A stretch of DNA of 64,000 nucleotides from contig JAGLFH010000037.1 in assembly GCA_023144635.1 (NCBI GenBank), forward strand, positions 26,489 to 90,488, written 5' to 3'. This DNA comes from Candidatus Auribacterota bacterium. Its GTDB lineage: Bacteria; Auribacterota; JAFGBW01; JAFGJP01. Below the pieces are notes generated by a model, which did not search any database, was not told the DNA's origin, and saw nothing but the letters and a program-made list of their open reading frames with translations. Shown in pieces: positions 5,775 through 55,555 of the stretch (position 1 is its first letter; each line of letters starts with the position of its first letter). The translations under genes and the position numbers were made by a program.

Positions 5775-5806
5775 TACACGGGCACAGCACGCTGTGCCCC
5801 TACTAC
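5775..5806 (+). repeat. REP-like hairpin unit (GTAG-palindrome on complementary strand)
   Basis: tacacGGGCACAGCacGCTGTGCCCctactac; 9-bp arms. Confidence 0.65.
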
Positions 5807-5811
5807 TTTTA

Positions 5812-5850
5812 CAGTGGTACGGGCAGGCGCCCCCGCGTACCGCTGCTCAC
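5812..5850 (+). repeat. REP-like hairpin unit, degenerate
   Basis: cagtGGTACGGGCAGGCGCCCCCGCGTACCgctgctcac; imperfect palindrome. Confidence 0.45.
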
Positions 5851-5918
5851 TTTTTATATTTTTCTTTTCTTTTTTATTTTATTTTAATGTCGTCGAAGAC
5901 ACCATTATTTTTATTTTT

Positions 5919-5950
5919 TTTACATGGGCGAAAGATTTTTCGCCCCTTGT
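5919..5950 (+). repeat. REP-like hairpin unit
   Basis: tacatGGGCGAAAgattTTTCGCCCct; core identical to 55368-55395. Confidence 0.7.
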
Positions 5951-6023
5951 ATGTTTTCACAATTCAGGTAACATCAGAGAAAATATGGGACGCAGATCAA
6001 TAGGATTAAGAGCTTTATTATCT

Positions 6024-6060
6024 TTCACACGGACAGGGACAAGCCCTGTCCCTACATACT
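6024..6060 (+). repeat. REP-like hairpin unit
   Basis: cacacGGACAGGGacaagCCCTGTCCctacatac. Confidence 0.7.
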
Positions 6061-6147
6061 TTTACTTTCTATGGTTCATGACTCTGTGTTCTCTGTGAAC
6101 GTGCTAAAAGTCCGCCGGGGCGGGTGGTGTGAAAGGCTTTTGCTTTT

Positions 6148-7659
6148 TTATCCATAATTTTTATCAATAAGACGCATAATATAATGTTTCTCTATTGCTA
6201 CAATCAGAACAACATGAAAAAAGATATAATGCAATGTATTCGTATCTACAAAAGAATGCACAAATGATCCTACGAAAACACCCAGTAAAGCTACTGATAT
6301 TAATTTTTCATCTTTTTTTAGTTTTTCTTTTGAAATAAATAAAAACATCTTATATATAAGAACAATGTAAAATATTAGTGCTGTCAGTCCTGCAAAAACA
6401 CCCATTTCCACTGAAAGGTTTAGAAAAAGATTATGAGCATGAAAATTATGAAATTCTATCTCTTTAGTAGCATACTTGAGCTTGTCAAAGAACAGCATCA
6501 TATCAATAATATAGGCTGGACCAAACTGTTTATAAAACTCCTCTCCCATATTCAAAAACCCTACTCCAAACAACGGAGAACGCTCTATCATTCTTAAAGA
6601 ATAATCCCATATCTGCCCCCTTCCGCTAAGCCCTGATTTTAAACGCAGAAGAAATATGATCTTCTCCAGATAAATCATAATAACGGCTACGACTGATGAT
6701 ACACCTGCAAAGACCATCTTCCACAAATGTTTAGGACGGACATATAGAAGCACTATCCCGCACCCTATCATCATATTAAGAAGCCCTCCTCTGCTAGAAG
6801 CAATAAGCTGTGCAAAAGCTATGCAAGCAAACAAAAAACCATAAAAGATCTTTAATGAGCGCTTCTTATTCACAAAAAACAAAACAAGGGCTATCGGCGC
6901 AATGGATGCAAGTACAGCACCAAAAATATTCTGATGAAAAAAAACAGAACTGGCTTTAAACTGTTTTAAATCACTTGCCTGCCAGCCAATTTTTAAAGCT
7001 ATATTCTGCCAACCTATGGGAACTATATAATCCTGAAGAAAAAGAAATTTTTGTTTTCTGACAACTATCCACTGCAATATACCGAAAAGAGCCAGAAAAG
7101 TAACGACCAGACAAAGGTTCCTAATAAATACTGAAACTTTCCTTTTTTCATTAAAATAATCACTTAAAGCTAGCATAAACAAAGGAAGAAGAAGCATTCC
7201 TAGGCCGCGAATAAAAGTCTTTGAGGGATTTTCTGCATTAATTGTTGATAAGAGGAAAAAAGTAACCAGAAGAAAAAGAAATTTTTTCGTAAACCCAAAA
7301 TATTTAAGACGAATCTTTACTATAGGCTCTGCATTTCTCTTTAATGACCATATGATACAAAATATAATTATGATTATAGGAGTCATGACCGGTATTGCAA
7401 AAGATATTTCATCAACAGGTGAGTTCTGAAAATACATCATTAGAAATATCAGCGCAACCGCAATATCAGGCTTAAAAAAGATAAGAGCTATTAAAAAAAC
7501 ACCACCAATAATAGCAATTGTATACAGATAGTTATAATTTGAAAAAAAGCTTATGCACCATCCTGCAAAAAGGATTATAAAAAAAAAGATTAAAAGTTTT
7601 TCAGTTTGATCTTTCAGTAAAATTTCTTCTACCCCACGTAAACAAGTTAATAAAAACAT
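6148..7659 (-). CDS. O-antigen ligase / Wzy-like polytopic membrane protein
   Basis: 503 aa, about 10-12 predicted TM helices plus a periplasmic loop, typical of the O-antigen ligase family; directly downstream of the Wzz-like gene. Confidence 0.55.
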   Translation of the reverse strand: MFLLTCLRGVEEILLKDQTEKLLIFFFIILFAGWCISFFSNYNYLYTIAIIGGVFLIALIFFKPDIAVALIFLMMYFQNSPVDEISFAIPVMTPIIIIIFCIIWSLKRNAEPIVKIRLKYFGFTKKFLFLLVTFFLLSTINAENPSKTFIRGLGMLLLPLFMLALSDYFNEKRKVSVFIRNLCLVVTFLALFGILQWIVVRKQKFLFLQDYIVPIGWQNIALKIGWQASDLKQFKASSVFFHQNIFGAVLASIAPIALVLFFVNKKRSLKIFYGFLFACIAFAQLIASSRGGLLNMMIGCGIVLLYVRPKHLWKMVFAGVSSVVAVIMIYLEKIIFLLRLKSGLSGRGQIWDYSLRMIERSPLFGVGFLNMGEEFYKQFGPAYIIDMMLFFDKLKYATKEIEFHNFHAHNLFLNLSVEMGVFAGLTALIFYIVLIYKMFLFISKEKLKKDEKLISVALLGVFVGSFVHSFVDTNTLHYIFFHVVLIVAIEKHYIMRLIDKNYG

Positions 7660-11799: not shown

Positions 11800-12837
11800 A
11801 TGGAAAAAAATGACATAAAACTTATTGATACTGAAAAGCTAAAAGCCATTATGACATCAAATGGTTTTAAGGCATATAGAGCCTCCCAGATACAACACGC
11901 AATATGGAAAGAAGGCGCAAATACCTTTGAGATGATGCCCATTCCTTTAAACCTTAAAGATTTTCTTAAAAAACATTTCTATATTTATACTTGTAAGGTC
12001 ATAAATAAAAGTTCCAGTAAGGATGGAACCATTAAATTTCTTTTAGAATTTTTGAATAAAACATATATAGAAACAGTTTTTATTCCGTCATCATCACACA
12101 ACACACAATGCATATCATCCCAATCAGGATGCAAAATGAGATGTCGTTTTTGCGCAACAGGTGAAAGTGGTTTTAAACGAGATCTTTCAGCCGGAGAAAT
12201 AATAGAACAGATCCTGATAATACAGAAATTAACCGGAGAAAGTATCGGAAATATTGTTGTTATGGGAATGGGAGAGCCTTTTGAAAATTATAACAATTTA
12301 ATGCAGGCGATCCGTATCATAAATTCAAAACATGCTCTTAACATAGGAGCAAGAAGAATCACTGTTTCAACTGTAGGGATCCCAGAAGCGATAAAACGCT
12401 TTGCTGATGAAAACATACAGGCACGGCTTTCGATATCACTTCATGCAAGCGAAAATTCACTTCGCTCTCAAATAGTACCCATAAACAAAAAATATCCAAT
12501 AGAAGATATATTAAAAGCCTGTCGTTATTATAATAAAAAAGCAAAAAAATATGTCAGCTTTGAATACATCCTTTTAAAAGGGATAAATGACTCTGAAAAA
12601 CATGCAATATCACTTTCAAAAAGACTAAAGGGCTGGAAATGCAGAGTAAATTTAATTCCTTACAACCCTGTAAATTCATCAGAATTTATGCGATCAGATA
12701 ATGGTCAAATAAAAACTTTCAGTAACATCCTTAAAAAGTTCGGCATCAATACCACCATAAGAAAAGAAAGAGGCGTGGACATAAAAGCAGCTTGCGGCCA
12801 GTTAAAAAGTTCTTTTTTGAAAAACAAAAATACTTAA
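11800..12837 (+). CDS. rlmN: 23S rRNA (adenine2503-C2)-methyltransferase RlmN, radical SAM
   Basis: 345 aa; FKAYRASQ N-terminal motif, CxxxCxxC radical-SAM cluster (CKMRCRFCATG), GMGEP motif. Confidence 0.9.
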   Translation: MEKNDIKLIDTEKLKAIMTSNGFKAYRASQIQHAIWKEGANTFEMMPIPLNLKDFLKKHFYIYTCKVINKSSSKDGTIKFLLEFLNKTYIETVFIPSSSHNTQCISSQSGCKMRCRFCATGESGFKRDLSAGEIIEQILIIQKLTGESIGNIVVMGMGEPFENYNNLMQAIRIINSKHALNIGARRITVSTVGIPEAIKRFADENIQARLSISLHASENSLRSQIVPINKKYPIEDILKACRYYNKKAKKYVSFEYILLKGINDSEKHAISLSKRLKGWKCRVNLIPYNPVNSSEFMRSDNGQIKTFSNILKKFGINTTIRKERGVDIKAACGQLKSSFLKNKNT

Positions 12838-13717: not shown

Positions 13718-13733
13718 GGACAGAGGGAAGAAC

Positions 13734-13790
13734 AGTTAATTGGTTTACTTGTTAAATAGTTAACTGGTTCAAGGAGCACTGAAGCGCGAT
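13734..13790 (+). repeat. intergenic repeat module (CAGTTAATTGGTT...GTTAACTGGTTCAAGGAGCACT)
   Basis: About 55-nt module also at 50633-50690 (+) and 46503-46557 (-). Confidence 0.6.
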
Positions 13791-13846: not shown

Positions 13847-13885
13847 GATCCCGCGGTTAAACACGCGGGATGACATACGTTTTGG
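13847..13885 (+). repeat. hairpin repeat module (GATCCCGCG...CGCGGGATGACATACGTTTT)
   Basis: 8-bp stem atcccgcg/cgcgggat; second copy at 43281-43316 has the same stem and a different loop. Confidence 0.55.
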
Positions 13886-13982
13886 TTTCGAATTTTAAAC
13901 CTTTTACGGGGGTTGCTTCGTCGCAATAAATCACAATGATTTACTGCTTCTCGCAATGATAACGTTTTCTTTTTTATTACTT

Positions 13983-14020
13983 TTTATACGGGCGTATTGC
14001 AATACGCCCCTACATACTTT
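13983..14020 (+). repeat. REP-like hairpin unit
   Basis: tacGGGCGTATTGCAATACGCCCctacatac; perfect 20-nt palindrome, identical to 48090-48109. Confidence 0.75.
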
Positions 14021-14134
14021 TATGTTTTTCTCTTCGTGGTTTTTGTGGTTAATTAAAATAATGCGTCGCAGACACCATAATTTTAAGTACTTTAGCTCAC
14101 TTTAGGCATTTAAAACTTTATATATCTGTCTTAC

Positions 14135-43190: not shown

Positions 43191-43200
43191 GTGAAAAAGT

Positions 43201-43235
43201 AAGTAGGGGCGCTGCTTGACTGCGCCCGTGTAAAA
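43201..43235 (-). repeat. REP-like hairpin unit (inverted orientation)
   Basis: aaGTAGGGGCGCtgcttgactGCGCCCgtgtaaaa; same GGGCGC/GCGCCC stem as 25785-25805 in opposite orientation. Confidence 0.65.
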
Positions 43236-43280
43236 ATAGCTGCCTGAACCGTTGTTAAACTGTAAAAATAAATTTATCTA

Positions 43281-43316
43281 GATCCCGCGATCAAGTCGCG
43301 GGATGACAACGTTTTA
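43281..43316 (+). repeat. hairpin repeat module (GATCCCGCGA...TCGCGGGATGACAACGTTTT)
   Basis: 9-bp stem; upstream of purE. Confidence 0.55.
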
Positions 43317-43427
43317 TTTTTTGTTCTTTTACTATATTGTGCTGTAAAGCACACCAATAACTTTAAGTACTTTAAACTTTAGTGCACTTTAGGCACTTTT
43401 ATATGTTTGAAAAAAGGAGGATTTAAT

Positions 43428-43934
43428 ATGGCTACACCTATCGTTTCTATAATAATGGGAAGTAAAAGTGATTTTAATACTATGAAAAAAGCAGCTGATG
43501 TCCTTGATTCTTTTGATCTTGGTTATGAAATGGAAATAATGTCAGCTCACAGAACTCCTGAAAAAGTAGCTGAATATGCAAAAACAGCTGCAAAAAGAGG
43601 ATTAAAAATAATTATATGCGGTGCAGGTATGTCAGCTCATCTTGCAGGTGTAGTTGCTGCTCATACAGATCTACCTGTAATAGGAATTCCTTTAAGCTCA
43701 GCACAGGGACTTGGTGGTATGGATGCTCTTTTATCTACTGCTCAGATGCCTAAAGGTGTACCTGTTGCTGCAGTAGCAATAAATGGTTCAGTAAATGCCG
43801 CCCTTCTGGCAATAAAAATACTTGCTCTTTCAGATAATACACTGACTGATAAGTTCAAAGCATATAAAGAAAACATGCGAAAAGAAATAGAAGAAGCATC
43901 ACAAAAGATGAAAAAGGGAGAATCTCCTTTGTGA
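43428..43934 (+). CDS. purE: N5-carboxyaminoimidazole ribonucleotide mutase
   Basis: ORF track uses TTG at 43407; ATG at 43428 follows AGGAGG with 7-nt spacer and gives MATPIVSIIMGSKSD...SAHRTP...GAGMSAHLAG (PurE signatures). Confidence 0.9.
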   Translation: MATPIVSIIMGSKSDFNTMKKAADVLDSFDLGYEMEIMSAHRTPEKVAEYAKTAAKRGLKIIICGAGMSAHLAGVVAAHTDLPVIGIPLSSAQGLGGMDALLSTAQMPKGVPVAAVAINGSVNAALLAIKILALSDNTLTDKFKAYKENMRKEIEEASQKMKKGESPL

Positions 43935-44539
43935 AAGTTTTTTATCTTGATGCTAAAAACCCAGATTTAGCCACAATTGACAAAGCTGCTAAAATTGTAA
44001 GGGAAGGTGGACTTGTAGCTTTTCCAACTGAAACTGTCTACGGAATTGCAGTATCTGCCAAAAAACCTGAAACCATACAAAAGTTATACGAGCTTAAAAA
44101 GCGTGCTGTTGATAAACCTTATTCTTATCACTTTGGTTCACTGGAACAATTTTTTTTATTTTCAGGCAATATAAACGACAAATTAAAAAGTTTTTTCAAT
44201 CATTTTTGTCCCGGACCAATAACAGTTGTCTATTATGATGATATAAAGAAGAAAAAACTCGGTATAAGGATACCTAACCATAAAACCGCCAGTCTTTTTC
44301 TTGAAAAATGCGATTGTCCTGTTTTTGCTCCAAGCGCAAATCCATCATCAAAAAAAAGCCCAACGACTTCACAGGAAGTAATATCCTATTTTGAGAATAA
44401 AATAGATGCTGTGCTAGATGCAGGTCCTTGTGACTTTGGAAAAGATTCTACTGTTGTTGAAACAGATGGAAATAAATATAAAATACTACGTCACGGAGCT
44501 GTTACCGAGGCTAAAATAAAAGAATTCCTTGATTCTTAA
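43931..44539 (+). CDS. tsaC: L-threonylcarbamoyladenylate synthase (YrdC/Sua5 family)
   Basis: 202 aa; GTG start overlapping purE stop; VAFPTETVYGIA YrdC motif. Confidence 0.8.
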   Translation: MKVFYLDAKNPDLATIDKAAKIVREGGLVAFPTETVYGIAVSAKKPETIQKLYELKKRAVDKPYSYHFGSLEQFFLFSGNINDKLKSFFNHFCPGPITVVYYDDIKKKKLGIRIPNHKTASLFLEKCDCPVFAPSANPSSKKSPTTSQEVISYFENKIDAVLDAGPCDFGKDSTVVETDGNKYKILRHGAVTEAKIKEFLDS

Positions 44540-44584
44540 AAAAAGGTTCATCTCTAAAGCTATAACTTAATTATTACCTTATTT

Positions 44585-44911
44585 TTACTTCAAACGGGCA
44601 ATCTTAATAGTTGTCTGGGTACCATTCCCCCAAGGCCAAAACATTGCTATAACCGTACCCTCATCAAGAGATTTCGAATATAAGGTCTGGTTTCTTGAAA
44701 CACCACCGAAATCATCAGTTAATTTAAGAACCTCTTTACTGGGTGAAGTTCCTGCAGGTTTTGCAGCATCACCAAGAAGTGAAGCACATGCTTCGTGCCA
44801 CTTGTCTATTTCAGTATTTGCAACAACTACTTCTATATATTCATCAGAATTAGCTCTTTCTTCATGTATTTTTAACCCACTGCACTTTTCAAGGATCTCT
44901 TTAATATTCAC
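44585..44911 (-). CDS. hypothetical protein (108 aa)
   Basis: Well-spaced ORF between tsaC and cspA; no recognisable motif. Confidence 0.45.
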   Translation of the reverse strand: MNIKEILEKCSGLKIHEERANSDEYIEVVVANTEIDKWHEACASLLGDAAKPAGTSPSKEVLKLTDDFGGVSRNQTLYSKSLDEGTVIAMFWPWGNGTQTTIKIARLK

Positions 44912-44990
44912 ATTAAGTCTCTCTTATTGAAGTTTTATGTTTTAGATAAATCACTATTTGAAAAAAAGTATAAACAAGTTTGTTTACTAA

Positions 44991-45019
44991 AAAAGCCCGA
45001 CTAATTAGCCGGGCTTTTT
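44991..45019. terminator. bidirectional intrinsic terminator downstream of cspA
   Basis: aaaaagcccgactaattagccgggcttttt: GC stem flanked by an A-run and a T-run. Confidence 0.6.
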
Positions 45020-45032
45020 ATTTATTTTTTGC

Positions 45033-45233
45033 TTATAATTTTACTACGTTTTTGGCTTGTTCTCCTTTGGGGCCCTCTTCAACATCAAATTCAACATCCT
45101 GACCCTCTTCCAAAGATTTATAGTCATCACCCTGAACAGCAGAAAAATGTACGAATACATCGTTTCCTTCTTCAGGAGTAATAAATCCATAACCCTTTTT
45201 GTTGTTGAACCATTTTACCTTACCCTTTGCCAT
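45033..45233 (-). CDS. cspA: cold-shock protein (CspA family)
   Basis: ORF track starts at 45263; ATG at 45233 follows AGGAGG (8-nt spacer) and gives [18 protein letters not shown]...DVFVHFSA (RNP1/RNP2 motifs); bidirectional terminator hairpin at 44991-45019. Confidence 0.9.
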
Positions 45234-45371
45234 TACAACTACCTCCTTTTTACTATTTACCACACAGAGTATAAGAATAAAAAAGCGGTATATAATCTTT
45301 ACTCTATTTAATACTAATAATATAGTGCAAAATATTTATGCTTTTTGTCAATAAAATAAATCAAGAAAACA

Positions 45372-46214
45372 TTATTCTAAAAAAACTTTTACCTGTGATC
45401 CTCTACCGTGAGCAAATGAAAAAACAACATCACTTGCACCTTGAGGAATTGGTACATTAAAAATATTTTTTCCCTGAGATAAACGTCCATTCTGAGCATA
45501 GGGATGCCATGCGCCATTATAATAAACTTTAATCGTATTTATTATTATTGCATGCTTTTCAGTAATATTGACATCTACAATTATCTTTGAAAAACTTCTG
45601 CCACCCGTATAAGCACTTACATTATACTTTCCAACTTTTTTATCATAATTAGCCTTAGTAAAAGAAGCGATCAAAACCTGCGAACTATGTTTTTTTACAA
45701 TAGGATTGTGACTTGATTTCTGACGTGTACAACCGGGACAACTGCTATTATTTGAACCATACCATCTTTTGCAATGAGTACAACGTATACTGGGGTTTGA
45801 AGAATGAGAAAGACTTACATCAAAACCTTGTCTGCAATGCGGGCAATTAACAAAAAATTGATCAGTGTTCAGTTTTCTTCCGCAATTAACACAAAAAGAA
45901 CTATTAGACTTATTACGCGCTCCACAATTCTGGCAAAGAGCAATCGTATTACTTGTGTTTAAACCAAAATTTCTGTGACAATGCGGACAATATACATTTT
46001 GAGAATATGATGAATTTGTTGATGATGTTAGTTTTGCACCACACCCCGCACAATAATTAGCATTAGATTTATTCTGGTAACGGCAGCTCGGGCATTCATA
46101 ACCCGATCGGTTACTTTGTGATCCTTGATTAAATATATCCAGCCATGAATTGTCTGCAACAACAACAGGCACTATTAAAAAACAAATTAATAAAGTAAAA
46201 ATTATTTTTTTCAT
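45372..46214 (-). CDS. secreted protein with four to five tandem zinc-ribbon (CxxC...CxxC) modules and C-terminal beta-rich domain
   Basis: ORF track starts at 46295 inside a repeat region; ATG at 46214 follows GGAAGGA SD and gives signal peptide MKKIIFTLLICFLIVPVVVA; repeated CPSCRY...CAGCG, CPHCHR...CQNCG, CVNCG, CPHCRQ...CTHCKR...CPGC. Confidence 0.55.
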   Translation of the reverse strand: MKKIIFTLLICFLIVPVVVADNSWLDIFNQGSQSNRSGYECPSCRYQNKSNANYCAGCGAKLTSSTNSSYSQNVYCPHCHRNFGLNTSNTIALCQNCGARNKSNSSFCVNCGRKLNTDQFFVNCPHCRQGFDVSLSHSSNPSIRCTHCKRWYGSNNSSCPGCTRQKSSHNPIVKKHSSQVLIASFTKANYDKKVGKYNVSAYTGGRSFSKIIVDVNITEKHAIIINTIKVYYNGAWHPYAQNGRLSQGKNIFNVPIPQGASDVVFSFAHGRGSQVKVFLE

Positions 46215-46275
46215 ATCAAATCCTTCCTTCGGGGTTTGCCGCGTCGCATCTCCTCGCAATGACAACATTTTACGT

Positions 46276-46312
46276 TTTATAGCGGGAGGAGGCAAGCACC
46301 TCCCCTACATAC
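46276..46312 (+). repeat. REP-like hairpin unit
   Basis: tagcGGGAGGaggcaagcaCCTCCCctacatac. Confidence 0.55.
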
Positions 46313-46360
46313 ATTTATTTTTTCTCTTTTCTATTCGCCGTTAATTCGTGGTTCCTTATT

Positions 46361-46395
46361 TTTTACACGGTACGGGCAAGCCCGCACCCTACTCA
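46361..46395 (+). repeat. REP-like hairpin unit
   Basis: ttttacacGGTACGGGCaaGCCCGCACCctactcac. Confidence 0.6.
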
Positions 46396-46502
46396 CATTT
46401 TACTTTCATCATGAACCCTATGTGGTTCATGCCCCTTTTGTGTCCTTCCCTTTGATTTACTTTATTCACTCAGGACAGGATGGCGGTGAATTTTATAATA
46501 AT

Positions 46503-46557
46503 CGCACGAAGTGCTCCTTGAACCAATTAACTTTTTAACCAGCTAACTAATTAACTG
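46503..46557 (-). repeat. intergenic repeat module (CAGTTAATTGGTT... family, inverted)
   Basis: Reverse complement reads cagttaattagttagctggttaaaaagttaattggttcaaggagcacttcgtgcg. Confidence 0.6.
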
Positions 46558-46683
46558 TTTCCATCTATGTCCGTGCTGAATTTTCATTCTTTTTAAACTT
46601 CTTATACATAGATATAGACGATCAAAACACATAAATATTTCATAAAACAACAGAAATTCGCTGGCAAGGTCAAAGATTAAGAA

Positions 46684-47427
46684 CTAGTATGAACTTCCAG
46701 GATTTTCCTCTCTTTTTTCTAAATATGTAATGTATTTAAAAACTTCTTCCAGCGCTTCAGAATATTCCTTTGAAAACTCCATACCATTCTGATACAACTG
46801 GCCATCCATTACTTTTCTGGAATGCCTTATAATTCCTTCAAGTTTGATAGGATTAGGAAAACTTGTAGGTACTATCATTTTCATCCTTATTTGACAGCCT
46901 TCCTTTATTTCTATATCACTGTTAAATAATAATCCACCTGATGATATATCAACTATCTGAGATGTTTTTATACTGCCTGAGCCAAGTTCAATATATTGAA
47001 TAATAACCTGAGATTTTAAACGTTTATAACGGCGGTTTTCATGATTCAAGAAAGAAGCTTTTTCAGCATTCTCTTCTGCATCACCCTTATCGGCACCTAA
47101 ATAATCAAGATAATCATTTATTTCTTCAGTTATCTCCGGAGTATTCTCAGTAAATTTGATTCCAGTATTATACAACATATCCTTCATTTTTTCGCGAGAA
47201 TGAAGAACAATTCCTTTTATATTAAGCTTATCAGGATAGCTTGTAGGTACAAGTACATTGATCTCGATTGGAGTGTTTGGGGGATAATCTTTTGCTGTTG
47301 TAAACTGCATTCCGCTTCTACTTATATCAAGAAGCTGGGAAGAGTTAAATTTCTCATCATATAAGCCCTTATAAAAAAGCACTATATGAGTTTCTATGCG
47401 CTCATGTTTTCTGCTAAAATTGCTCAT
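46684..47427 (-). CDS. tandem PilZ domain protein
   Basis: 247 aa; two PilZ-like units (RKHERIETH...DISRSGMQF and RRYKRLKSQ...DISSGGLLF). Confidence 0.65.
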   Translation of the reverse strand: MSNFSRKHERIETHIVLFYKGLYDEKFNSSQLLDISRSGMQFTTAKDYPPNTPIEINVLVPTSYPDKLNIKGIVLHSREKMKDMLYNTGIKFTENTPEITEEINDYLDYLGADKGDAEENAEKASFLNHENRRYKRLKSQVIIQYIELGSGSIKTSQIVDISSGGLLFNSDIEIKEGCQIRMKMIVPTSFPNPIKLEGIIRHSRKVMDGQLYQNGMEFSKEYSEALEEVFKYITYLEKREENPGSSY

Positions 47428-47891
47428 TTTTCCTTTTTACTTTGATTTAAAAGCAACTGCAGTTCACTCATAAACTGATTTATATCCTTAAACTGTCTAT
47501 AGACAGAAGCAAAGCGGACATATGCTACTTCATCTATTTTCTGAAGTTTTTTTATTACCATTTCACCAATAACATCAGACTGGATTTCCTTTAATGCGTT
47601 CCTGTTAATATACTTTTCAATTTCTGTAACTATCTCCTCTATTTGTTCTGTGCTGACCGGTCTTTTTTCACAAGCTCTAGAAATACCACCAAACAATTTT
47701 ACACGGTCAAAATTTTCACGGCTTTTATCTTTTTTTATAACTTTTACAGGAACTTCTTCGGTTTTTTCATAAGTAGTAAACCGACTATCACATTTAATAC
47801 ATTCACGCCTACGCCTTATTTTATCCCCTTCAGGAGAAAGCCGTGAATCTATTACTCTGTCATTGAGATGTCCGCAAAAAGGGCATTTCAT
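47424..47891 (-). CDS. nrdR: transcriptional repressor NrdR
   Basis: 155 aa; MKCPFCGH...RVIDSR zinc ribbon plus ATP-cone (VIKKDKSRENFDRVKL). Confidence 0.92.
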   Translation of the reverse strand: MKCPFCGHLNDRVIDSRLSPEGDKIRRRRECIKCDSRFTTYEKTEEVPVKVIKKDKSRENFDRVKLFGGISRACEKRPVSTEQIEEIVTEIEKYINRNALKEIQSDVIGEMVIKKLQKIDEVAYVRFASVYRQFKDINQFMSELQLLLNQSKKEK

Positions 47892-47978
47892 AATATGTCT
47901 TCCTTTATAACTGATTTATATTATTGATGCAATAAATAAAAAGATCAAAAAAAGTGACTAAAATACGTTAAAGTTTCT

Positions 47979-48027
47979 CCACCCCGCAGGAGTAAACAAA
48001 TTACACCTACGGGGTGGTGGTCTTTTT
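47979..48027 (+). repeat. terminator-like hairpin repeat (second copy, plus orientation inside a minus-strand operon gap)
   Basis: ccaccccgcaggagtaaacaaattacacctacggggtggtggtcttttt; between nrdR and glyA. Confidence 0.45.
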
Positions 48028-48082
48028 CAAATTACACAAGTAAAAAACAAATTCTAAATATCAAATTAGATTCAAGACATAT

Positions 48083-48120
48083 CATACACGGGCGTATTGC
48101 AATACGCCCCTACTAACTTT
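48083..48120 (+). repeat. REP-like hairpin unit
   Basis: cacGGGCGTATTGCAATACGCCCctactaac; identical to 13990-14009. Confidence 0.75.
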
Positions 48121-48155
48121 TTACTTTTCCATTTGTGGCTAATTGCCTTTTGTTC

Positions 48156-48195
48156 TTTCACACGGACAGGCACAGAGACCTGTCCCTACATATAT
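48156..48195 (+). repeat. REP-like hairpin unit
   Basis: cacacGGACAGGcacagagaCCTGTCCctacata; identical core at 55483-55504. Confidence 0.7.
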
Positions 48196-48261
48196 TTTAT
48201 TTTTTATTTTAATGTCGTCGAAGGCTCCTTTCACGAACACCAAACGACGAACCACGAGTTT

Positions 48262-49506
48262 TTATATTCCTTCATAAAGAGGAAATTTTTTGCAAAGTGC
48301 ATGAACAGAATCTTTTACTTTCTGAATTTCAGCATCTCTACCACCTGATTTCAAAGTTTGCGAAATAAACTGTGCTATAAGTTTCATTTCTTCCACGCCC
48401 ATACCGCGCGTAGTAACAGCAGGTGTACCTACCCTTATACCACTTGTTACAAAAGGAGACTGAGGATCAAAAGGAATAAGATTTTTATTTACAGTTATCT
48501 CTGACTTATACAGTAAATTTGCAGCATCTTTTCCTGTCATGTTTATACTTCTAAGGTCAACAAGCATGAGATGATTATCAGTACCACCTGAGACTATCCT
48601 TAAGCCTAGCTCCTCTAAAGAAGAAGCAAGTTGTTTTGCATTTTCTATTATTCTCTTCTGATAAAGTTTAAATTCATCTGTTAATGCTTCTTTAAGTGCA
48701 ACTGCTTTTGCAGCTATAACATGCATAAGCGGGCCACCCTGTATGCCCGGGAAAACGTGCATGTTTATATCCTTAGCATATTTTTCTTTAGCAAGAATAA
48801 GCCCCCCTCGTGGGCCACGAAGTGTTTTGTGAGTTGTTGTTGTTACAATATCACAGTATTCACAAGGATTAGGATGAAGTCCGGCTGCAACAAGGCCTGC
48901 AATATGTGCCATATCTACAACAAGAAAAGCATTTATTTTATCTGCAATTTCACGCAATCTTTTAAAATCAATTATTCTAGGATACGCAGAAGCACCGGCA
49001 AGTATCATTTGAGGTTTTTCATCTACAGCCATTTTTTCTAATTCATCATAATCGATCATTTCTGTTTCTTTTGAAACACCATAAGCAATGATCTGAAATA
49101 ATCTTCCTGAAAAATTCATTTTATGACCATGAGTCAAATGTCCTCCGTGATCAAGACTCATTGCAAGTATCTTGTCTCCTGGTTTAATGATAGCAAAATA
49201 TGCAGCCATATTAGCCTGAGATCCTGAATGAGGCTGAACATTAGCATACTCTGCTTTAAAAAGTTCTTTAGCCCTTTCTATAGCAAGAGATTCAACTACA
49301 TCCATATATTCACATCCGTTATACCATCTTTTTCCCGGATATCCTTCTGCATACTTATTAGTAAGGACAGAACCCTGTGCTTCAAAAACAGCACGTGATG
49401 TAAAATTTTCCGATGCTATAAGCTCAAGACCATTTTGCTGGCGTTTAATTTCATTTCTAACAGCCTGAAACACTTCCGGATCAGTTCTCTCAAGATATTC
49501 CATCAT
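48262..49506 (-). CDS. glyA: serine hydroxymethyltransferase
   Basis: 414 aa; [22 protein letters not shown]-lysine region [14 protein letters not shown]. Confidence 0.95.
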
Positions 49507-49948
49507 TATTGCTCCTCTCGATATCAGTTATCTTATCCACACGTCTTCCATGCCTTCCGCCCTCAAATTCTGTATTAAGCCAGATATCCAATATTTCAAC
49601 TGCTGTTTTATCCTCTACAAAAGCACCTCCAAGAGCAAGCACGTTAGCATCATTGTGCTTCCTGCTCATTTCTGCCGCTTTTGGAGTTCTACAAAGTGCA
49701 GCTCTTATTCCACGTACCTTATTAGCAACCATAGACATTCCAATACCTGTTGTACAAATAACTATTCCTTTATCTGCCTTTTTATCTGCTACTGCACGCG
49801 CTGCCTTTATACCAAAATCAGGGTAATCTACAGAATCTTTATTGGGACATCCAAAATCATCAACTTCATATTCTTTTTTTAGAAGATATTCTTTTACAAA
49901 TTCTTTTAACTCAAATCCTCCATGATCACTGGCAATTGCTATTTTCAT
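49490..49948 (-). CDS. rpiB: ribose-5-phosphate isomerase B
   Basis: 152 aa; [25 protein letters not shown] motifs. Confidence 0.9.
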
Positions 49949-50412
49949 ATAATATCAGCCACCTTTTCTATTGCTGGTTTCATTAATTCAAAACAATTTT
50001 CATAAGCATGCATTGGAAGACCTATTGGATCAAAAACATCAGGATCTTTAGGATTATGATTTTCCTCAAATTCTCTTAAAAGATAAATCTTTTTTTTACT
50101 TTCAGGAAACCTTTCTTCAAGTTCCCTTACATGTGACCATGTCATTCCAAGTATAATATCTGATGCTTCCACAAGTGCACCTGTTACAGGCTTTGCTTTA
50201 TTTCCACTTATATCAAGAGCAACGTCTGATAAAACCTGGATTGCATGAGCACTTGGAGAAGACCCTTCATACGCGGCAAGTCCTGCAGAATATACTATAA
50301 CATCCATTTTATTTATATTTTTAAGTACTTCTTTCATATATCCTTCTGCCATCTGAGAACGGCAAGAATTTCCTGTACAAACAAAAAGTACTGCTTTTTC
50401 GCGTTTATCCAT
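49945..50412 (-). CDS. low-molecular-weight protein-tyrosine phosphatase / ArsC-like
   Basis: 155 aa; VLFVCTGNSCRSQMAEG is the LMW-PTP P-loop (CxGNxCRS). Confidence 0.85.
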   Translation of the reverse strand: MDKREKAVLFVCTGNSCRSQMAEGYMKEVLKNINKMDVIVYSAGLAAYEGSSPSAHAIQVLSDVALDISGNKAKPVTGALVEASDIILGMTWSHVRELEERFPESKKKIYLLREFEENHNPKDPDVFDPIGLPMHAYENCFELMKPAIEKVADII

Positions 50413-50484
50413 AATTCCCCTTATAATGTTGTTACATATTAAAGAAATAGTATATTACTATGAATATATTATATTTGCAAATAG

Positions 50485-50625
50485 TGATATAAAAATCAGA
50501 TGACAGAAGACAGAGGGCAGATAACAGAAAACCACATGATTCGTCTTTGGCGAAAACGTGGCTTCGCAGAGGATAGAAGATAGAAAAAGCAAGAGAAAAA
50601 CACAAGATTAAGGCAAAACAGAAGA
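50485..50625. repeat. T-depleted purine-rich low-complexity tract
   Basis: gatgacagaagacagagggcagataacagaaaacc...ggatagaagatagaaaaagcaagagaaaaacacaagattaaggcaaaacagaagaaaaag. Confidence 0.45.
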
Positions 50626-50632
50626 AAAAGAT

Positions 50633-50690
50633 CAGTTAATTGGTTAACTCATTAAAAAGTTAACTGGTTAAAGGAACGCTCCGCTGATTA
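50633..50690 (+). repeat. intergenic repeat module (CAGTTAATTGGTT... family)
   Basis: cagttaattggttaactcattaaaaagttaactggttaaaggaacgct. Confidence 0.6.
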
Positions 50691-50953
50691 TTATAATAAT
50701 GACCAAGGAAAAACACGAGAGGAAAAGTAATTCGTGGTTAATTAATATTATATCGCCGAAAGCTCATTAATTTCACATTTTCTGGTTTTTTTACCTGGCT
50801 TCCGCGGTCTCTCCCAACAAGATGGCGGACAAGTAAACTACGTGATGACAACATTATACGTTTTACTTTTATCTTTTAACCATTTACTATGGACTATTGT
50901 CTATCGACTATTTTTGTTTTTTCTATTATCTGCTATCTGCCTTCTGATTTCTG

Positions 50954-51925
50954 TCACTCATATCCAAGCTGTTTAAAAAGTTTATCGGTAGATTTTAAAT
51001 ATATATCTTTATTTATTTCTTCTAGCCAGTGTTCTTTTATATATTCATTTGCCTGGACACGTGCATCTCCCCAACCCTGCCCCACCCACATAGGCTGGTC
51101 TTCCCAATTGCTGTTTATATAACTAATAGCTTTAATATTATGCTTTTTTACAAACTTGAAAAATAATTTATACCATGCTTCCCAGCCTGTTTTATCAAGA
51201 GATGTACTCATTCCCTTCGGCGTAGCTTCTCCTATCATCACAGGTTTATTATATTTTTTTGCAAACGCTATGACAGGTTCCATCATATCTTCAGGCTGGC
51301 TGAAATAGGAAAGACCTATCCAATCAACATAAGCATCTCCCGGATACCATTTGATAAGGTCAGGTTCTACCTGATGACCGTGTGCATGCCACACATAAGC
51401 TGTATTATTTACTCCTGCATCTTTTAGCTTATCTACAAGATAACAATAAGCTTTTTTATATTCTTCAGGATCATGATGATTGTGCGGGCCATTGAATTCA
51501 TACCCTATACGAAGATATACGGGTACTTTAACCTTTTTAAGCCAGCCTGCTAATAAAACTATATTGTCATCATACAGGCCTTCATAAGTCTTTGATAAAG
51601 CATCTACCATGTAAAGCCCTATCTGGATAACAGTAAACGGATACTTATTCAAAAGCTCATCAGCATAGAATGTACCTGACCCATAATCCTTTGAAATATA
51701 ATTTAGTCCATCCATATCCTGAATCGAAGTATATATCATGAAACCGCCGGGGATGTTTCCTGTATCATCAATATATGTTTCTATGGTCTTATTATCCTGA
51801 CCGATTATTAGAAGGACCTTATCTTGTGGGGGTTCGAGTTTTGATAAAACATTTTCTGCAAAAGAAGTATGACAAAAAAAGATAAAAAATAATTGCAACA
51901 TGAAAAGTGAAATAATAAATCTCAT
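50954..51925 (-). CDS. secreted glycoside hydrolase, clan GH-A-like (GH26/GH5-like)
   Basis: 323 aa with signal peptide; candidate catalytic glutamates in RIGYEFNGPHN and MIGEATPKG; family assignment by eye only. Confidence 0.45.
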   Translation of the reverse strand: MRFIISLFMLQLFFIFFCHTSFAENVLSKLEPPQDKVLLIIGQDNKTIETYIDDTGNIPGGFMIYTSIQDMDGLNYISKDYGSGTFYADELLNKYPFTVIQIGLYMVDALSKTYEGLYDDNIVLLAGWLKKVKVPVYLRIGYEFNGPHNHHDPEEYKKAYCYLVDKLKDAGVNNTAYVWHAHGHQVEPDLIKWYPGDAYVDWIGLSYFSQPEDMMEPVIAFAKKYNKPVMIGEATPKGMSTSLDKTGWEAWYKLFFKFVKKHNIKAISYINSNWEDQPMWVGQGWGDARVQANEYIKEHWLEEINKDIYLKSTDKLFKQLGYE

Positions 51926-51971
51926 AATAATTCCTTTCTATTATTAATTTATAAAAAATATTTGAGTAATC

Positions 51972-52697
51972 TTAGTAATTACCATGGAAATCTGCATCAT
52001 AATCAAATATCGGCTCCTTAGATAGATCAATTACTCTATGATAACCTGCTGTGTTTCTCTTTCTTGTAGTAGATCCGGCATCATAGCAACGTTTAATCCC
52101 CCATTTACCATGCCTTTTTTTGCCTAAATGATTATGACCGTAAAGCAGAGCATCAATGTTTCCATTTTCCATTAAAACATTTCCAAGTTCTTTTGAATCC
52201 TTAAGTTCATGGAAAGGAAGCGGATCAAAAGGATGGTGATGCATATATACAACTATATATTTACTATTCTTTACCTCTTTAAGTGTAAGTACTTTGCTAA
52301 GACGATCCAGCTGATTTGTTCCGATTTGACCTTCAGCAAAAAGCCTGTTATACCAATGGATCTCCTCTGCCATAGAATCAATACCTATAAATGCTATATT
52401 ATCTATAATATCGAGCTTTGGATATTGTACATTTGAATTTTCTAAGATCTTTTCTTTAAAAAGCGAAACAAATTTTTTAGAGCTTTTGGAAGCTGTTCCG
52501 TAATCATGATTTCCGGGAACTACAAGCACAGTAAAACCTGCTGATTCAAGTTTTCTTATATACATCCTTGCTTCAAGATAATTAGAAGGGTCTATTGCGT
52601 TTTCGACCAGATCACCAGTTATTACTATCACATAATCCTTAGCAGGTTCTTTTAAAAAAATAATACTTTCTAATATACACTTGAATCTTTCTCCCAT
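51972..52697 (-). CDS. metallophosphoesterase (calcineurin-like); true N-terminus probably 16 codons upstream at an ATA codon (52745)
   Basis: GDLVENA (motif II), GNHD (III), HHHP, GHNH present; motif I (IIHLSDIHVGF) lies in-frame upstream of the first ATG, with no ATG/GTG/TTG available and GGAGG 6 nt before an ATA. Confidence 0.8.
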   Translation of the reverse strand: MGERFKCILESIIFLKEPAKDYVIVITGDLVENAIDPSNYLEARMYIRKLESAGFTVLVVPGNHDYGTASKSSKKFVSLFKEKILENSNVQYPKLDIIDNIAFIGIDSMAEEIHWYNRLFAEGQIGTNQLDRLSKVLTLKEVKNSKYIVVYMHHHPFDPLPFHELKDSKELGNVLMENGNIDALLYGHNHLGKKRHGKWGIKRCYDAGSTTRKRNTAGYHRVIDLSKEPIFDYDADFHGNY

Positions 52698-52805
52698 ATT
52701 CTCAAAACCAACATGTATATCACTTAAATGTATTATCTTTTTTATTTCAGACCTCCATAAGGTTTTACTAAATTATATCATAAAAAATAGTAGGGCAGAT
52801 ACTTT

Positions 52806-54659
52806 TCAGAACATCTGTTCTTCCTCTTCAAATTCCTTAATTTTTTCCTCATATACTTCTGTTGTTTTTCCAAGTTCTTCATAACCAGTATCTATTAGAC
52901 CCTGTAATTCCTGAACGAACCTTGATAGTTCGGATATAGCACTTATATTTGAAGAGTTAGAAGCATCTATAAGAGCTTCCATCTTTTCTTTTAAAACTTT
53001 TTCTCTTTCCTCAATCTCTTTTTCCAGTAATGGGATTTTGTTTTTATATGGAGTCAATACTCTTGAACGCCTATTTATAAATTCTGCCCGAGCTTTCTTT
53101 TTCTGTTTTATTGATACTGATTTATTAATTCCATTTTTATCCTCAGACTTTTCCTTTGTAAGGTCACCGTTAGTATCTCCCCAACCTACTTCATCAAGAA
53201 AATCTTCATAACCTCCATGATAAATAAATAATCCGTTATCGTGAAAAACGATCAGCTTTTTTGCAACCCTATATAAAAACTCTTCATTATGAGTAACGAT
53301 CACTGATGCACCGTCAAAATTATCTACTGCATCTATTATTCCCTCACATGATTCCATATCAAGATGATGGGTAGGTTCATCAAGTAAAAGTACATTTGCC
53401 GGTGTTACAAGCATTTTACCAAGGAGGACACGGCATCTTTCTCCTCCTGATAAAACACTTATTTTTTTAAGAGCATTATCTCCGGAAAACATCATTAAGC
53501 CGCAGATATCCCTGCTTCTTTTGTTATCACTTCCAGATCGGCAGGATAAAATTTCTTCTTCAACACTCAAATCATCTCTTAAGTTTGCAGTGTCACCCTG
53601 CTCAAAATAAGCTTTTTTAGTTTGAGGGTGGTAACGAACCTGACCATTCTTAGGGTTGAGTCTTTCTGCGAGCAGCTTTAAAAGCGTTGTCTTACCTTTA
53701 CCATTTTTTCCGATAATGCAAATTCTATCATTTTTTGCCACAGCAAGATTAAAATTATCTATTAGTTTTGGAGAATCATCGGAATAAGAAAAACTGAGAT
53801 CAGCAATATCCATTACATATTTTGCCGGAAAAGAGGCAAAATTAAAAGAGAACGAAAGAGTTGATATTTTATCCAGTTTTTCCAGCTCCTGCTCTTTTCT
53901 AATTCGCTTTACACGAGATTGTACCAATGATGCCCTTCTCGCTTTGGCTCTAAATTTATTTATAAACTCATTTGTCTTCTTGTGTTTCTTTTCAATATTG
54001 ATACGCTGTTTTTCATAAACCTCTTCTTCTTTTGAGACCCTTTCATAATAATTACCGGTTAAGCCAGTACATTTTTTAACATTTTTTCTATGAATACCCA
54101 CTATATGAGTTACAACGCTGTCCATAAAACATCTGTCGTGACTGACTATTACACATTCACCGCGCCAAGAATTTAAAAAACGTTCCAGCCACCTTATAGA
54201 AACAATATCAAGAAAGTTAGTAGGTTCATCAAGCAATAACAAATTAGGATTTGATACAAGCACTTTTGCAAGATTAAGACGTATTTTATAACCACCGGAA
54301 AATTCCAGAGGATCACGTAAAAAATCCTCTTCAAGAAAACCAAGTCCAGCAAGGACTTTCTTTACTTTCCACTCGTTTAAGTTTTCATGCTTAGGAAGCC
54401 CAAGACAACCTTCTTCAAGAACAGTTTTAGCACTAAAACTTATATGCTGGCTCAAATAACCTATACGGTAGTCTTTTGGAAGACTGATGGTGCCTTTATC
54501 ACAAGGCTCTTTCCCTGTAATCAAGTTAAAGAGTGTAGTCTTGCCGTGCCCATTTCTGCCTACAAGACCAACACGTTCACGGGGATTGATGCAAAAAGAA
54601 ACATCATCAAAAATAACCTGGTCCCCATATTGTTTGCTGATTTTCTGTATTAAGATCAT
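52806..54659 (-). CDS. ABC-F family ATPase (two ABC domains, no TM domain)
   Basis: 617 aa; two Walker A (GRNGHGKTT, GKNGKGKTT), two signatures (FSGGYKIRL, LSGGERCRV), linker with coiled-coil. Confidence 0.9.
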   Translation of the reverse strand: MILIQKISKQYGDQVIFDDVSFCINPRERVGLVGRNGHGKTTLFNLITGKEPCDKGTISLPKDYRIGYLSQHISFSAKTVLEEGCLGLPKHENLNEWKVKKVLAGLGFLEEDFLRDPLEFSGGYKIRLNLAKVLVSNPNLLLLDEPTNFLDIVSIRWLERFLNSWRGECVIVSHDRCFMDSVVTHIVGIHRKNVKKCTGLTGNYYERVSKEEEVYEKQRINIEKKHKKTNEFINKFRAKARRASLVQSRVKRIRKEQELEKLDKISTLSFSFNFASFPAKYVMDIADLSFSYSDDSPKLIDNFNLAVAKNDRICIIGKNGKGKTTLLKLLAERLNPKNGQVRYHPQTKKAYFEQGDTANLRDDLSVEEEILSCRSGSDNKRSRDICGLMMFSGDNALKKISVLSGGERCRVLLGKMLVTPANVLLLDEPTHHLDMESCEGIIDAVDNFDGASVIVTHNEEFLYRVAKKLIVFHDNGLFIYHGGYEDFLDEVGWGDTNGDLTKEKSEDKNGINKSVSIKQKKKARAEFINRRSRVLTPYKNKIPLLEKEIEEREKVLKEKMEALIDASNSSNISAISELSRFVQELQGLIDTGYEELGKTTEVYEEKIKEFEEEEQMF

Positions 54660-54727
54660 AGGTCAGTATTGTATCAATTCTTTTAAAAATCAAAAAGAAA
54701 TTAAAGGGAAACGGGTTAGATAATTGA

Positions 54728-55174
54728 TTATTCTGTTTTTGGGATATTGGTAAATACTTTTTGGCGGTCAAGAGAATATATCAACTTTGTTTGATCAACA
54801 ATAATTATCATTTTTAGTTTATCTTTTGATTCAAAAGAAAATTCAAAAGTCTCATTTACATTGTTTTCAAAATCAATAGTAAGTGTATTTTTCAACAAAG
54901 AATAAACACCCATTATTTCTTCAGCATATCCATCAAAAATATTTTTTTTCCTGCATTTACCATCTTCCGTAAAAGCATAGGTAGTTACCATATCCAAATC
55001 GCTACCCATTGCATTTGTTTCTACTATTTTCCACGTACCGATAATACTTGCATCTACATTAATTATGCGGGGAGTATCTTTCTTTACTGCAGTTGAAGTG
55101 GAATCGCATCCTTCAAGACAAAAAACAGCAAAAACCATACAAAAAAATACACTTATTATTGTTTTTGGATTCAT
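54728..55174 (-). CDS. putative lipoprotein
   Basis: 148 aa; signal peptide with lipobox-like LEGC. Confidence 0.55.
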   Translation of the reverse strand: MNPKTIISVFFCMVFAVFCLEGCDSTSTAVKKDTPRIINVDASIIGTWKIVETNAMGSDLDMVTTYAFTEDGKCRKKNIFDGYAEEIMGVYSLLKNTLTIDFENNVNETFEFSFESKDKLKMIIIVDQTKLIYSLDRQKVFTNIPKTE

Positions 55175-55365
55175 AACATCCCCTTGAATACTTTATAACT
55201 CTATATGAAATGTATTTTAAACCTTAATTTATATTTTTGAAAGGAAAAACTACTTCACCACGAAGGGCACGCCCGCTTTCGCTAAAGCTTTAGCGAGGCC
55301 TCATTGTCTCGTCGTAGCCTTGGCGTAGAACGGGAAGGAACACGAAGAAAAGCTTTTCTTTTTAC

Positions 55366-55400
55366 ATTACATGGGCGAAAGATTTTTCGCCCCTACTACT
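55366..55400 (+). repeat. REP-like hairpin unit
   Basis: tacatGGGCGAAAgattTTTCGCCCctactac; identical to 5926-5945. Confidence 0.7.
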
Positions 55401-55476
55401 TTTTACCTAGATTCCTGCCTAGCGGCAAGGTCGCTGGCATTCGCAGGAATGACATACGTAATAGTATTTTGTGCTT

Positions 55477-55515
55477 TTACACGGACAGGCACAGAGACCT
55501 GTCCCTACATGCGTT
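55477..55515 (+). repeat. REP-like hairpin unit
   Basis: ttttacacGGACAGGcacagagaCCTGTCCctacatgcg. Confidence 0.7.
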
Positions 55516-55517
55516 TA

Positions 55518-55555
55518 CATTTTACAAGGGCGGATTTAGAATCCGCCCCTACACA
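55518..55555 (+). repeat. REP-like hairpin unit
   Basis: ttttacaaGGGCGGATTtagAATCCGCCCctacacac; directly abuts the previous unit. Confidence 0.75.

Follow-up and report, generated by a model that had tools for sequence, protein, structure and literature searches.

A 64,000-nt stretch of DNA from a Candidatus Auribacterota bacterium (assembly GCA_023144635.1, contig JAGLFH010000037.1, positions 26,489 to 90,488 of the forward strand; hereafter the window, with coordinates counted from its first letter) carries a family of short intergenic hairpin repeats, and our analysis confirmed that this family is genuine and indicated that it fits the GTAG-tagged class of repetitive extragenic palindromic (REP) sequences. 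The explanation that we favor, and that we regard as probable, is that the repeats are a lineage-specific REP family amplified as units of ~50-nt, whose single-stranded DNA (ssDNA) hairpins would be recognized by a HUH enzyme of the REP-associated tyrosine transposase (RAYT) type encoded elsewhere. Part of the window is also represented on contig DAOVST010000013.1 of assembly GCA_030633405.1, and its acetate kinase (AckA) is identical to a protein that NCBI assigns to a Candidatus Aureabacteria/Auribacterota metagenome-assembled genome. The GC content of the window is 34%, and not roughly 30% as first estimated.

A covariance model, R1, was built from the alignment of the candidate units. In the window it detected 16 full copies at E ≤ 2.4e-4, and the next match had an E of 0.45. 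Beyond these 16 canonical units, one longer variant (5806-5852) and two truncated copies (25829-25847 and 43239-43252) were present. The density is 16-17 copies per 64 kb, spread over 9 gaps between genes, with 13 units on the + strand and 3 on the - strand (33981, 43145 and 43191). A preliminary description of this DNA had proposed the family, with three inverted units and 17 units in all, and these points stood, but its consensus was too strict, as CCCCTAC is found in just 9 units (9 occurrences in the window, when 2.1 are expected). A looser regular expression, AYA-N1-2-GG-N14-20-CCCT[AT][CG], gave 17 matches, namely the 16 units and a single chance match at 17793, within a gene, when first-order Markov simulations of the whole window gave a mean of 1.06 matches and a maximum of 5, and 0.09 matches were expected in the 4.3 kb of unit-bearing intergenic DNA, so that the pattern is enriched and not equally frequent in simulated sequence. 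That GC-rich palindromes have merely clustered by chance in AT-rich DNA, with no true family behind them, finds its sole support in the in-gene match at 17793; the 16 R1 matches against a background that begins at E = 0.45, the 17 matches against 1.06 expected, and a covariation above that of all 500 shuffles ruled this reading out, and we give it practically no credence. No match to Rfam was obtained at the gathering threshold in the entire window.

In the alignment of the units the consensus reads TTTTACAY-GG[5 variable bp]-loop-[5 bp]CC-C-TAC-WYAC-nTTT(T)AC. On the opposite strand this corresponds to GTAAAA(A)GT-RW-GTAG, followed by a GC-rich hairpin of 6-9 bp that opens with GG and closes with CC, and then by RTGTAAAA. 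The sequence CTAC (GTAG on the other strand) directly follows the stem in 15 of the 16 units and is replaced by CTTG in one; hence the GTAG abuts the hairpin, as had been proposed. The position opposite the last G of this tag is C, T or A, so that the tag is unpaired. Conservation extends from position -8 (TTTTACAY) through the stem to about +19 (C-TAC-WYAC-nTTT-(T)AC-TTTT), and the 5′ flank varies among units (TTTCACAC, TTTTATAC, CTTTACAG and others). Copies with identical cores diverge only beyond this stretch, and their similarity stops 8-25 nt away from the stem (one sub-family has ~25 nt of upstream similarity), and therefore the copied unit measures ~50-65 nt and not the ~35 nt first described.

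The hairpin is predicted to form as ssDNA in all 16 units (z-scores from -1.8 to -6.8) and in the long variant, which confirmed, by folding, the self-complementarity of the cores. In the 7-bp stem common to all units 94.6% of the stem cells were paired, versus 68% in the shuffles, and pairing fell to 33-58% when the 3′ partner column was slid. Two of the 7 common pairs, the GG/CC at the base of the stem, are invariant, and the other 5 have changed on both sides, so that the stems do differ with pairing kept. Among the 112 stem cells there were no G-T pairs, which indicated that pairing is symmetric at the DNA level. Stems are 6-9 bp and cores 20-22 nt long, and two designs of core were found: in one, the stem pairs perfectly over 7-9 bp around a loop of 3-8 nt, and in the other, seen in about half of the cores, the stem is bulged and contains an inner GGC/GCC-like element, e.g., GGTTC-A-GGC-AG-GCC-A-GAACC. 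The 16 units comprise 11 distinct cores, five of which occur twice, and from these counts a Chao1-type estimate suggests ~15 core types in the genome. Identical cores, together with their flanks, recur at loci 7-50 kb apart, a sign that whole units have been copied recently; the covariation is the difference between amplified sub-families, not a continuous drift in place. The preliminary description had considered the variable stems unusual, but sub-families with alternative complementary stem residues are found in most GTAG families (PMC3733652), and many different cores per genome were also found in the scan of other genomes described below.

In the mechanism that we propose, a few master sequences (~15 core types) would be amplified by copy-and-paste of the whole unit, which would act as a ssDNA hairpin. 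A RAYT-type Y1 HUH enzyme encoded elsewhere in the genome would recognize this hairpin by its GTAG tag, its GG/CC base and its flanks. Since recognition would rest on the tag and on structure, paired substitutions could arise freely in the inner stem, which would account for constant flanks around variable cores that still pair. Copies at gene 3′ ends would probably serve, secondarily, as stable stem-loops in the 3′ untranslated regions of transcripts.

The placement of the units bears both on this mechanism and on its main alternative. All units are intergenic, as had been described; the lone overlap with an open reading frame (ORF) arises at ORF 45372-46295 (- strand), where the database call starts at a TTG within the repeat and translates repeat DNA (…LSLRGDA…). 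Translation most likely begins at 46214, with the signal-peptide Met of MKKIIFTLLICFLIVPVVVA, and with this correction the unit at 46268-46320 is intergenic. ORFs 5754-6098, 48097-48348 and 55304-55612 are mere translations of repeat clusters, and there are no called ORFs within the 9 unit-bearing gaps. These gaps are long (189-804 nt) and comprise 3 of the 6 convergent, 6 of the 40 same-direction and none of the 6 divergent gaps, so that units are found only where a gap contains a gene 3′ end. Published GTAG REPs lie mostly between convergent and same-direction ORFs, and the distribution seen here is that reported for REPs (PMC3733652). The neighbors are ordinary housekeeping genes (pur genes, ackA-pta and the serine hydroxymethyltransferase gene), and the units are scattered over 50 kb.

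All 8 pairs of adjacent units are head-to-tail, and truncated copies sit at the edges of the arrays. The units described as back-to-back at 55477-55555 are indeed an abutting pair, but this pair extends over 55467-55564 and is arranged head-to-tail, and clustering of the type of bacterial interspersed mosaic elements (BIMEs), with alternating or inverted pairs, was not borne out. The three - strand units all lie inside a block of + strand genes at 33-44 kb. Hence the orientation fits gene direction with one exception (the unit at 25785) or strand with three exceptions, and the window cannot separate these two rules. An orientation of 13:3, with all pairs head-to-tail, would be as expected from strand-specific processing of ssDNA at replication forks or, alternatively, from selection on the transcribed strand.

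The confinement of the units to gaps with a gene 3′ end also lends support to a different explanation, which we consider possible though distinctly less probable, namely that these are orphan structural hairpins, REP-like in shape, that are no longer, or never were, mobilized by a RAYT, that stabilize transcripts, attenuate read-through or bind a host protein as gene 3′ stem-loops, and that have spread by local duplication and recombination only. The units of 4 of 5 same-direction gaps lie antisense to the + reading, and transcripts would therefore carry GTAG, the hairpin and GUGUAAAA in one fixed orientation; the unit at 25769-25821 is the sole one that is sense to the genes of its same-direction gap, and a canonical terminator hairpin (25724-25768) immediately precedes it. 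Moreover, a related hairpin, GGGCGTATGCAATACGCCCCTAC followed by a T-run, occupies the same place after an orthologous radical-SAM gene in four Atribacterota species, which argues for positional conservation rather than mobility; REPtrons have been reported absent from some REP-bearing species, and there is no RAYT in the 78 kb discussed below. Against orphan hairpins, the recurrence of identical 20-22 nt cores, flanks included, at distances of 7-50 kb implies that entire units were copied recently, the lack of G-U pairs leaves nothing specific to pairing at the RNA level, no unit is present at the orthologous ackA site in relatives, and the units are not terminator-like. A canonical Rho-independent terminator was rejected because the T-run starts 8-9 nt after the stem (the criterion being 0-2 nt) and the other strand carries GTGTAAAA and no T-run. 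In a terminator scan of 40000-59999, which covers 10 of the 16 units, no unit was among the terminator-like sites.

Several results weigh against the RAYT-amplified family that we favor. Neither a RAYT nor a Y1_Tnp gene was found in the ~78 kb made up of the window and 14 kb of added flank: tblastn searches of this DNA with probes for RAYT and IS200 yielded no match at E ≤ 1, when the same probe detected RAYT-like genes at other loci, and no Y1_Tnp appears in the Pfam lists of the called genes, in agreement with the preliminary description for the window itself. The same 14 kb of flank contains no further unit. No alternating or inverted pair, as in REPINs or BIMEs, exists among the 16 units. 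Furthermore, the flanks on the GTAG strand are nearly C-free, and neither CT nor CA recurs there at a constant spacing; the nearest C[TA] lies 1-44 nt away from the stem. These dinucleotides are the cleavage sites mapped for the RAYTs studied, although their positions are variable in those systems too (PMC8266576).

The link between hairpins of this type and RAYTs could be followed in other genomes. A genome collection was scanned with the pattern TTACANGGGCG-N8-14-CGCCCCTAC, and the results refer to the matches listed, which come from genomes other than that of this organism. Hairpins of the form GGGCG…CGCCCC-TAC were found in Clostridia, Ruminococcus, Chloroflexi, Bacteroidota, Acidobacteria, cyanobacteria, Serratia, Moraxella and Atribacterota, and single genomes of Ruminococcus, other Clostridia, Chloroflexi and further groups contain many different cores that have just the C-GG…CC-CTAC frame in common. 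With the RAYT probe, ORFs were detected beside or between such hairpins at five loci (L019, L085, L061, L048 and L041). When four of these ORFs were scanned with Pfam, Y1_Tnp was found in L019 (61.9 bits), L085 (24.9 bits) and L041 (21.2 bits, below the cutoff of 23), and the L048 ORF gave no Pfam match. Since Y1_Tnp ORFs adjoin such hairpins, the link holds elsewhere, and for the units of the window we infer it. A scan of the metagenomes of the JGI with the window-specific flanks gave 4 matches that were chance-like and none of them convincing, and the TTTTACAY and WYAC-TTTT flanks, essentially absent from that collection, are thus specific to the lineage of this window.

Relatives of this organism with 74-79% AckA identity are represented by contigs of 1.8-3.9 kb, and the two examined were both too divergent and too short for an empty-site analysis. 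In these two (76% and 79% AckA identity) no unit was found downstream of ackA, which is consistent with a lineage-specific gain. Contigs of the same strain from other samples (L001, L002 and L130-L138), 99.97-100% identical, showed no insertion polymorphism. The lone apparent difference between samples is a 100-N scaffold gap (L134, 10114-10213) that stands in place of window positions 55487-55566 and spans most of the unit 55467-55520 and all of the unit 55512-55564. In addition, contig L131 stops at window position 28514, inside the unit 28477-28529. These repeats therefore break assemblies.

The sequences that bracket the units were considered separately. IS608, of the IS200/IS605 family, inserts 3′ of TTAC. 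With this insertion as a precedent, the units could be another kind of miniature mobile element that inserts at TTTTAC and is moved by an enzyme other than a classical RAYT, with the target either duplicated, as in miniature inverted-repeat transposable elements (MITEs), or regenerated at the 3′ end of the element itself, as in IS608. Such insertion would produce head-to-tail arrays with TTTTAC on both sides, and indeed TTTTAC/TTTTAY is found on both sides of most units, the two units with TTTTAT at the left also have TTTAT at the right (about p = 0.05), and the arrays are strictly head-to-tail, with truncated copies at their edges. However, degenerate TTTTAC-like motifs abound in the intergenic DNA around the units, and the bracket might therefore be background or part of the element, the left and right motifs of one unit are often unequal, there is no empty site for comparison, and no candidate transposase was seen; we therefore hold this reading to be quite unlikely. 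MITEs have terminal inverted repeats and a target-site duplication; in the units the core is itself palindromic, and the flanking TTTTAC/TTTTAY motifs of one unit are not always identical. Unlikely too, though worth stating, is a broader version: an orientation-locked, head-to-tail hairpin element that targets or regenerates TTTTAC and is regularly juxtaposed with CGTC/TGTC-tagged hairpins (see below), the whole being a composite mosaic mobilized by some other, or a novel, ssDNA enzyme, or else a strand-specific genome signal. Three further candidates were rejected. The promoter reading is based on a match to TTTACA…TAGAAT at 55514, which is a single instance. Integron attC sites are 57-141 nt long, with R″/R′ core sites (GTTRRRY), and bound cassettes beside an integrase; the units measure ~50 nt, have a 20-nt core and lack GTTRRRY, and there is no integrase in the Pfam lists of the gene calls. 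The CRISPR reading was rejected on anatomy.

The units were located as follows. The first, at 5764-5815 (+), has its stem at 5780-5799 and the core GGGCACAGCACGCTGTGCCC (R1 51.8 bits; ssDNA hairpin of 8 bp, z = -4.1), and it is followed by the longer variant at 5806-5852 (+), TTTTACAG-[hairpin 5812-5845]-CTCAC-TTTTT, in which the flanks are as in the family and the stem is longer (-11 kcal/mol, z = -2.6). The unit at 5910-5961 (+; stem 5926-5945; R1 43.5 bits; z = -6.6) carries the degenerate tag CTTG for CTAC, and its core is the one found in the unit whose stem starts at 55373 (repeat family D17). Next comes the unit at 6015-6067 (+; stem 6031-6051; core GGACAGGGACAAGCCCTGTCC; R1 59.2 bits; z = -5.9). 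Further along, the unit at 13974-14025 (+; stem 13990-14009; R1 52.5 bits) has the core GGGCGTATTGCAATACGCCC, identical at 48090 (family D2), and the unit at 25769-25821 (+; stem 25785-25805; R1 43.4 bits) has a bulged core. A truncated 5′ half-unit, TTTTACAAGGGCGGTTCGC, was read from the sequence at 25829-25847 (+). The unit downstream of ackA, at 28477-28529 (+; stem 28493-28513; R1 54.1 bits), has the core GGGCGGATTTAGAATCCGCCC, identical at 55528. On the - strand, the unit at 33981-34032 (stem 33997-34016; R1 54.7 bits) has the bulged core GGTTCAGGCAGGCCAGAACC, which is identical at 43161 (family D10), in the unit at 43145-43198 (-; stem 43161-43180; R1 37.7 bits); then comes the unit at 43191-43243 (-; stem 43207-43227; core GGGCGCAGTCAAGCAGCGCCC; R1 50.2 bits) and a truncated copy of the GGTTCAGGCAG core at 43239-43252 (-), also read from the sequence. 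Two units with bulged cores are located at 46268-46320 (+; stem 46284-46304; core GGGAGGAGGCAAGCACCTCCC; R1 48.8 bits) and at 46353-46404 (+; stem 46368-46387; core GGTACGGGCAAGCCCGCACC; R1 58 bits). The unit at 48074-48125 (+; stem 48090-48109; R1 46.2 bits) precedes that at 48148-48201 (+; stem 48164-48185; R1 55.8 bits), whose core GGACAGGCACAGAGACCTGTCC is identical at 55483 and which belongs to family D11, with similarity running ~25 nt upstream. The last three units are at 55357-55408 (+; stem 55373-55392; R1 47.8 bits), at 55467-55520 (+; stem 55483-55504; R1 34.1 bits) and at 55512-55564 (+; stem 55528-55548; R1 55.7 bits), the last one abutting the preceding one head-to-tail.

In the published classification, the GTAG REP superfamily comprises 24 families (Di Nocera, De Gregorio & Rocco 2013, PMC3733652), found in >80 species of 8 phyla including Planctomycetes, and GTAG elements also occur in Opitutus terrae. 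Its members are palindromes of 20-40 bp that carry an unpaired GTAG, or a mild variant of it, on one side, and most of their stems measure 6-9 bp (PMC3733652); membership allows stems of 6-13 bp and entails a high copy number throughout the genome (Di Nocera 2013). The units of the window, like this superfamily, have an unpaired GTAG against a GC-rich stem of 6-9 bp with short loops, are extragenic in convergent and same-direction gaps, and have several cores with complementary sub-families. Hence the REP architecture first recognized here, a GTAG-abutting, GC-rich hairpin that is intergenic, clustered and repeated, matches that published. The closest GTAG families are those of the perfect-palindrome type, e.g., the SMAGs of Stenotrophomonas maltophilia (GTAG-6 to 9). 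Unlike the superfamily, the unpaired conserved flanks of the window units are much longer (8 nt on the tail side and ~15-19 nt past the tag), and the units are arranged head-to-tail only, when head-to-head (HH) and tail-to-tail (TT) dimers dominate the published families, with single units predominating in some (PMC3733652), so that such dimers are typical of the class but do not strictly define it. The host also differs, as it belongs to an AT-rich (34% GC in the window) candidate phylum that is not on the published list.

With the REP and BIME sequences of Escherichia coli (PMC3479197, PMC8266576) the units share their end, …CC-CTAC, E. coli REPs ending in GGCCTAC, and about half of the cores, bulged with an inner GGC/GCC, resemble the bulged GTAG-3 design and recall enterobacterial REPs. 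By contrast, E. coli BIMEs alternate REP orientation and the clusters of the window are uniform, and, unlike the E. coli group 2 RAYT (TnpA-REP) system, the window has neither a RAYT nor a CT/CA at constant spacing on the GTAG strand. The hairpins next to RAYT-like genes in Bacillota, Clostridia, Ruminococcus, Chloroflexi and others (L019, L041, L048, L061, L085, L113 and other loci) have, like the units, the form C-GGGCG…CGCCC-CTAC with many cores; they differ in that they conserve no more than ~1 nt on the 5′ side and CTAC outside the stem, and in that they are found in both orientations around RAYT-like ORFs. The REPINs of Pseudomonas fluorescens, reported by Bertels & Rainey 2011, are inverted REP doublets that form a long hairpin, non-autonomous and tied to a RAYT. 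The units are likewise short, GC-rich REP hairpins amplified within a genome, but no inverted doublet is present among the 16.

The long unit-bearing gaps are mosaics of several small repeat families, and since the repeat modules recur in similar order across gaps, the organization of these gaps is BIME-like. A second hairpin family was found at 5740-5772, 13848-13885, 43276-43318 and 55409-55462 (tag-first starts on the - strand at 5759, 13875, 43308 and 55454), with degenerate remnants at ~13950-13968 and 46255-46276. On the - strand it reads AAAACGT-W-(C/T)GTC, followed by a stem beginning with AT (ATTCCTGC…GCAGGAAT or ATCCCGCG…CGCGGGAT) and a tail CTAG/CCAC. Here too the flanks are constant and the stems differ; the four copies are all on one strand, even within the block of + strand genes, and 3 of the 4 lie 20-100 nt upstream of a GTAG unit. 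This family fits the CGTC/TGTC-tagged class of REPs, which has AT as first stem pairs and a CCA-like tail (Di Nocera 2013).

Other modules were also observed. A 47-nt repeat (5619-5665 and 37379-37425, 96% identical) is made of overlapping CACGTG palindromes (TTTCACGTGACCACGTTGACACGTGGAACGTGACTCACGTGGC) and could be an array of binding sites. A 39-nt repeat (25724-25762 and 47980-48018, 92% identical; CACCCCGCAGGAGTAAC…CCTACGGGGTGG) was also found; its copy at 25724, followed by TTTTTT, is a canonical terminator-like hairpin located just upstream of a GTAG unit. Strings rich in GTGCGT/TTCGTG and ending in TTCAAGGWGC are found at 5560-5615, 25445-25500, 33725-33830 and 33880-33910, and CATGAACC…GGTTCATG hairpins at 25873-25894, 33928, 46410-46431 and 6073-6080 (- strand). 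A TTAACTGGTT/TTCAAGGAGC module lies in gaps at 13728-13780 and 50628-50680 and, inverted, at ~46500-46560. Strings similar to this module, TTAACCAG(G/C)TAACTAA, are found 3′ of the REP-like hairpin in the four Atribacterota genomes mentioned above (L046, L057, L103 and L122), a resemblance across phyla. In these genomes the hairpin, TTACAAGGGCGTATGCAATACGCCCCTAC followed by the T-run, lies directly after the stop codon of the radical-SAM gene (L046 6828-6878, L057 2010-2060, L103 2151-2201 and L122 ~11336), its core is near-identical to the core GGGCGTATTGCAATACGCCC of the window, and the gene is 46-53% identical to the gene at 11800-12837 of the window. Finally, two pairs of direct repeats of 70-75 nt, 79-80% identical (families D6 and D9), occupy 2348-2876, in a convergent gap of 815 nt that has no GTAG unit.

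Taken together, these results indicated that the repeats are a new family of a known class, the GTAG-tagged REPs, in a new and little-studied candidate phylum, Candidatus Aureabacteria/Auribacterota. What is particular to the family of this window is its long flanks, its clusters that are head-to-tail only, its strand bias of 13:3 and its co-occurrence with CGTC/TGTC hairpins; these special features merit a genome-wide look but leave the family within the known kind, and the current understanding of REPs is unchanged by it. A practical effect is that such repeats break metagenome assemblies and create spurious ORFs and wrong starts, e.g., the TTG at 46295. The finding extends the GTAG REP class to an uncultured, AT-rich lineage of the PVC group, in which GTAG-type and CGTC-type hairpin repeats lie side by side in mosaic intergenic regions, and the strict orientation and long flanks of the units could help to tell the parts recognized by the enzyme (tag, stem base and flanks) from those that are free to vary (inner stem and loop).

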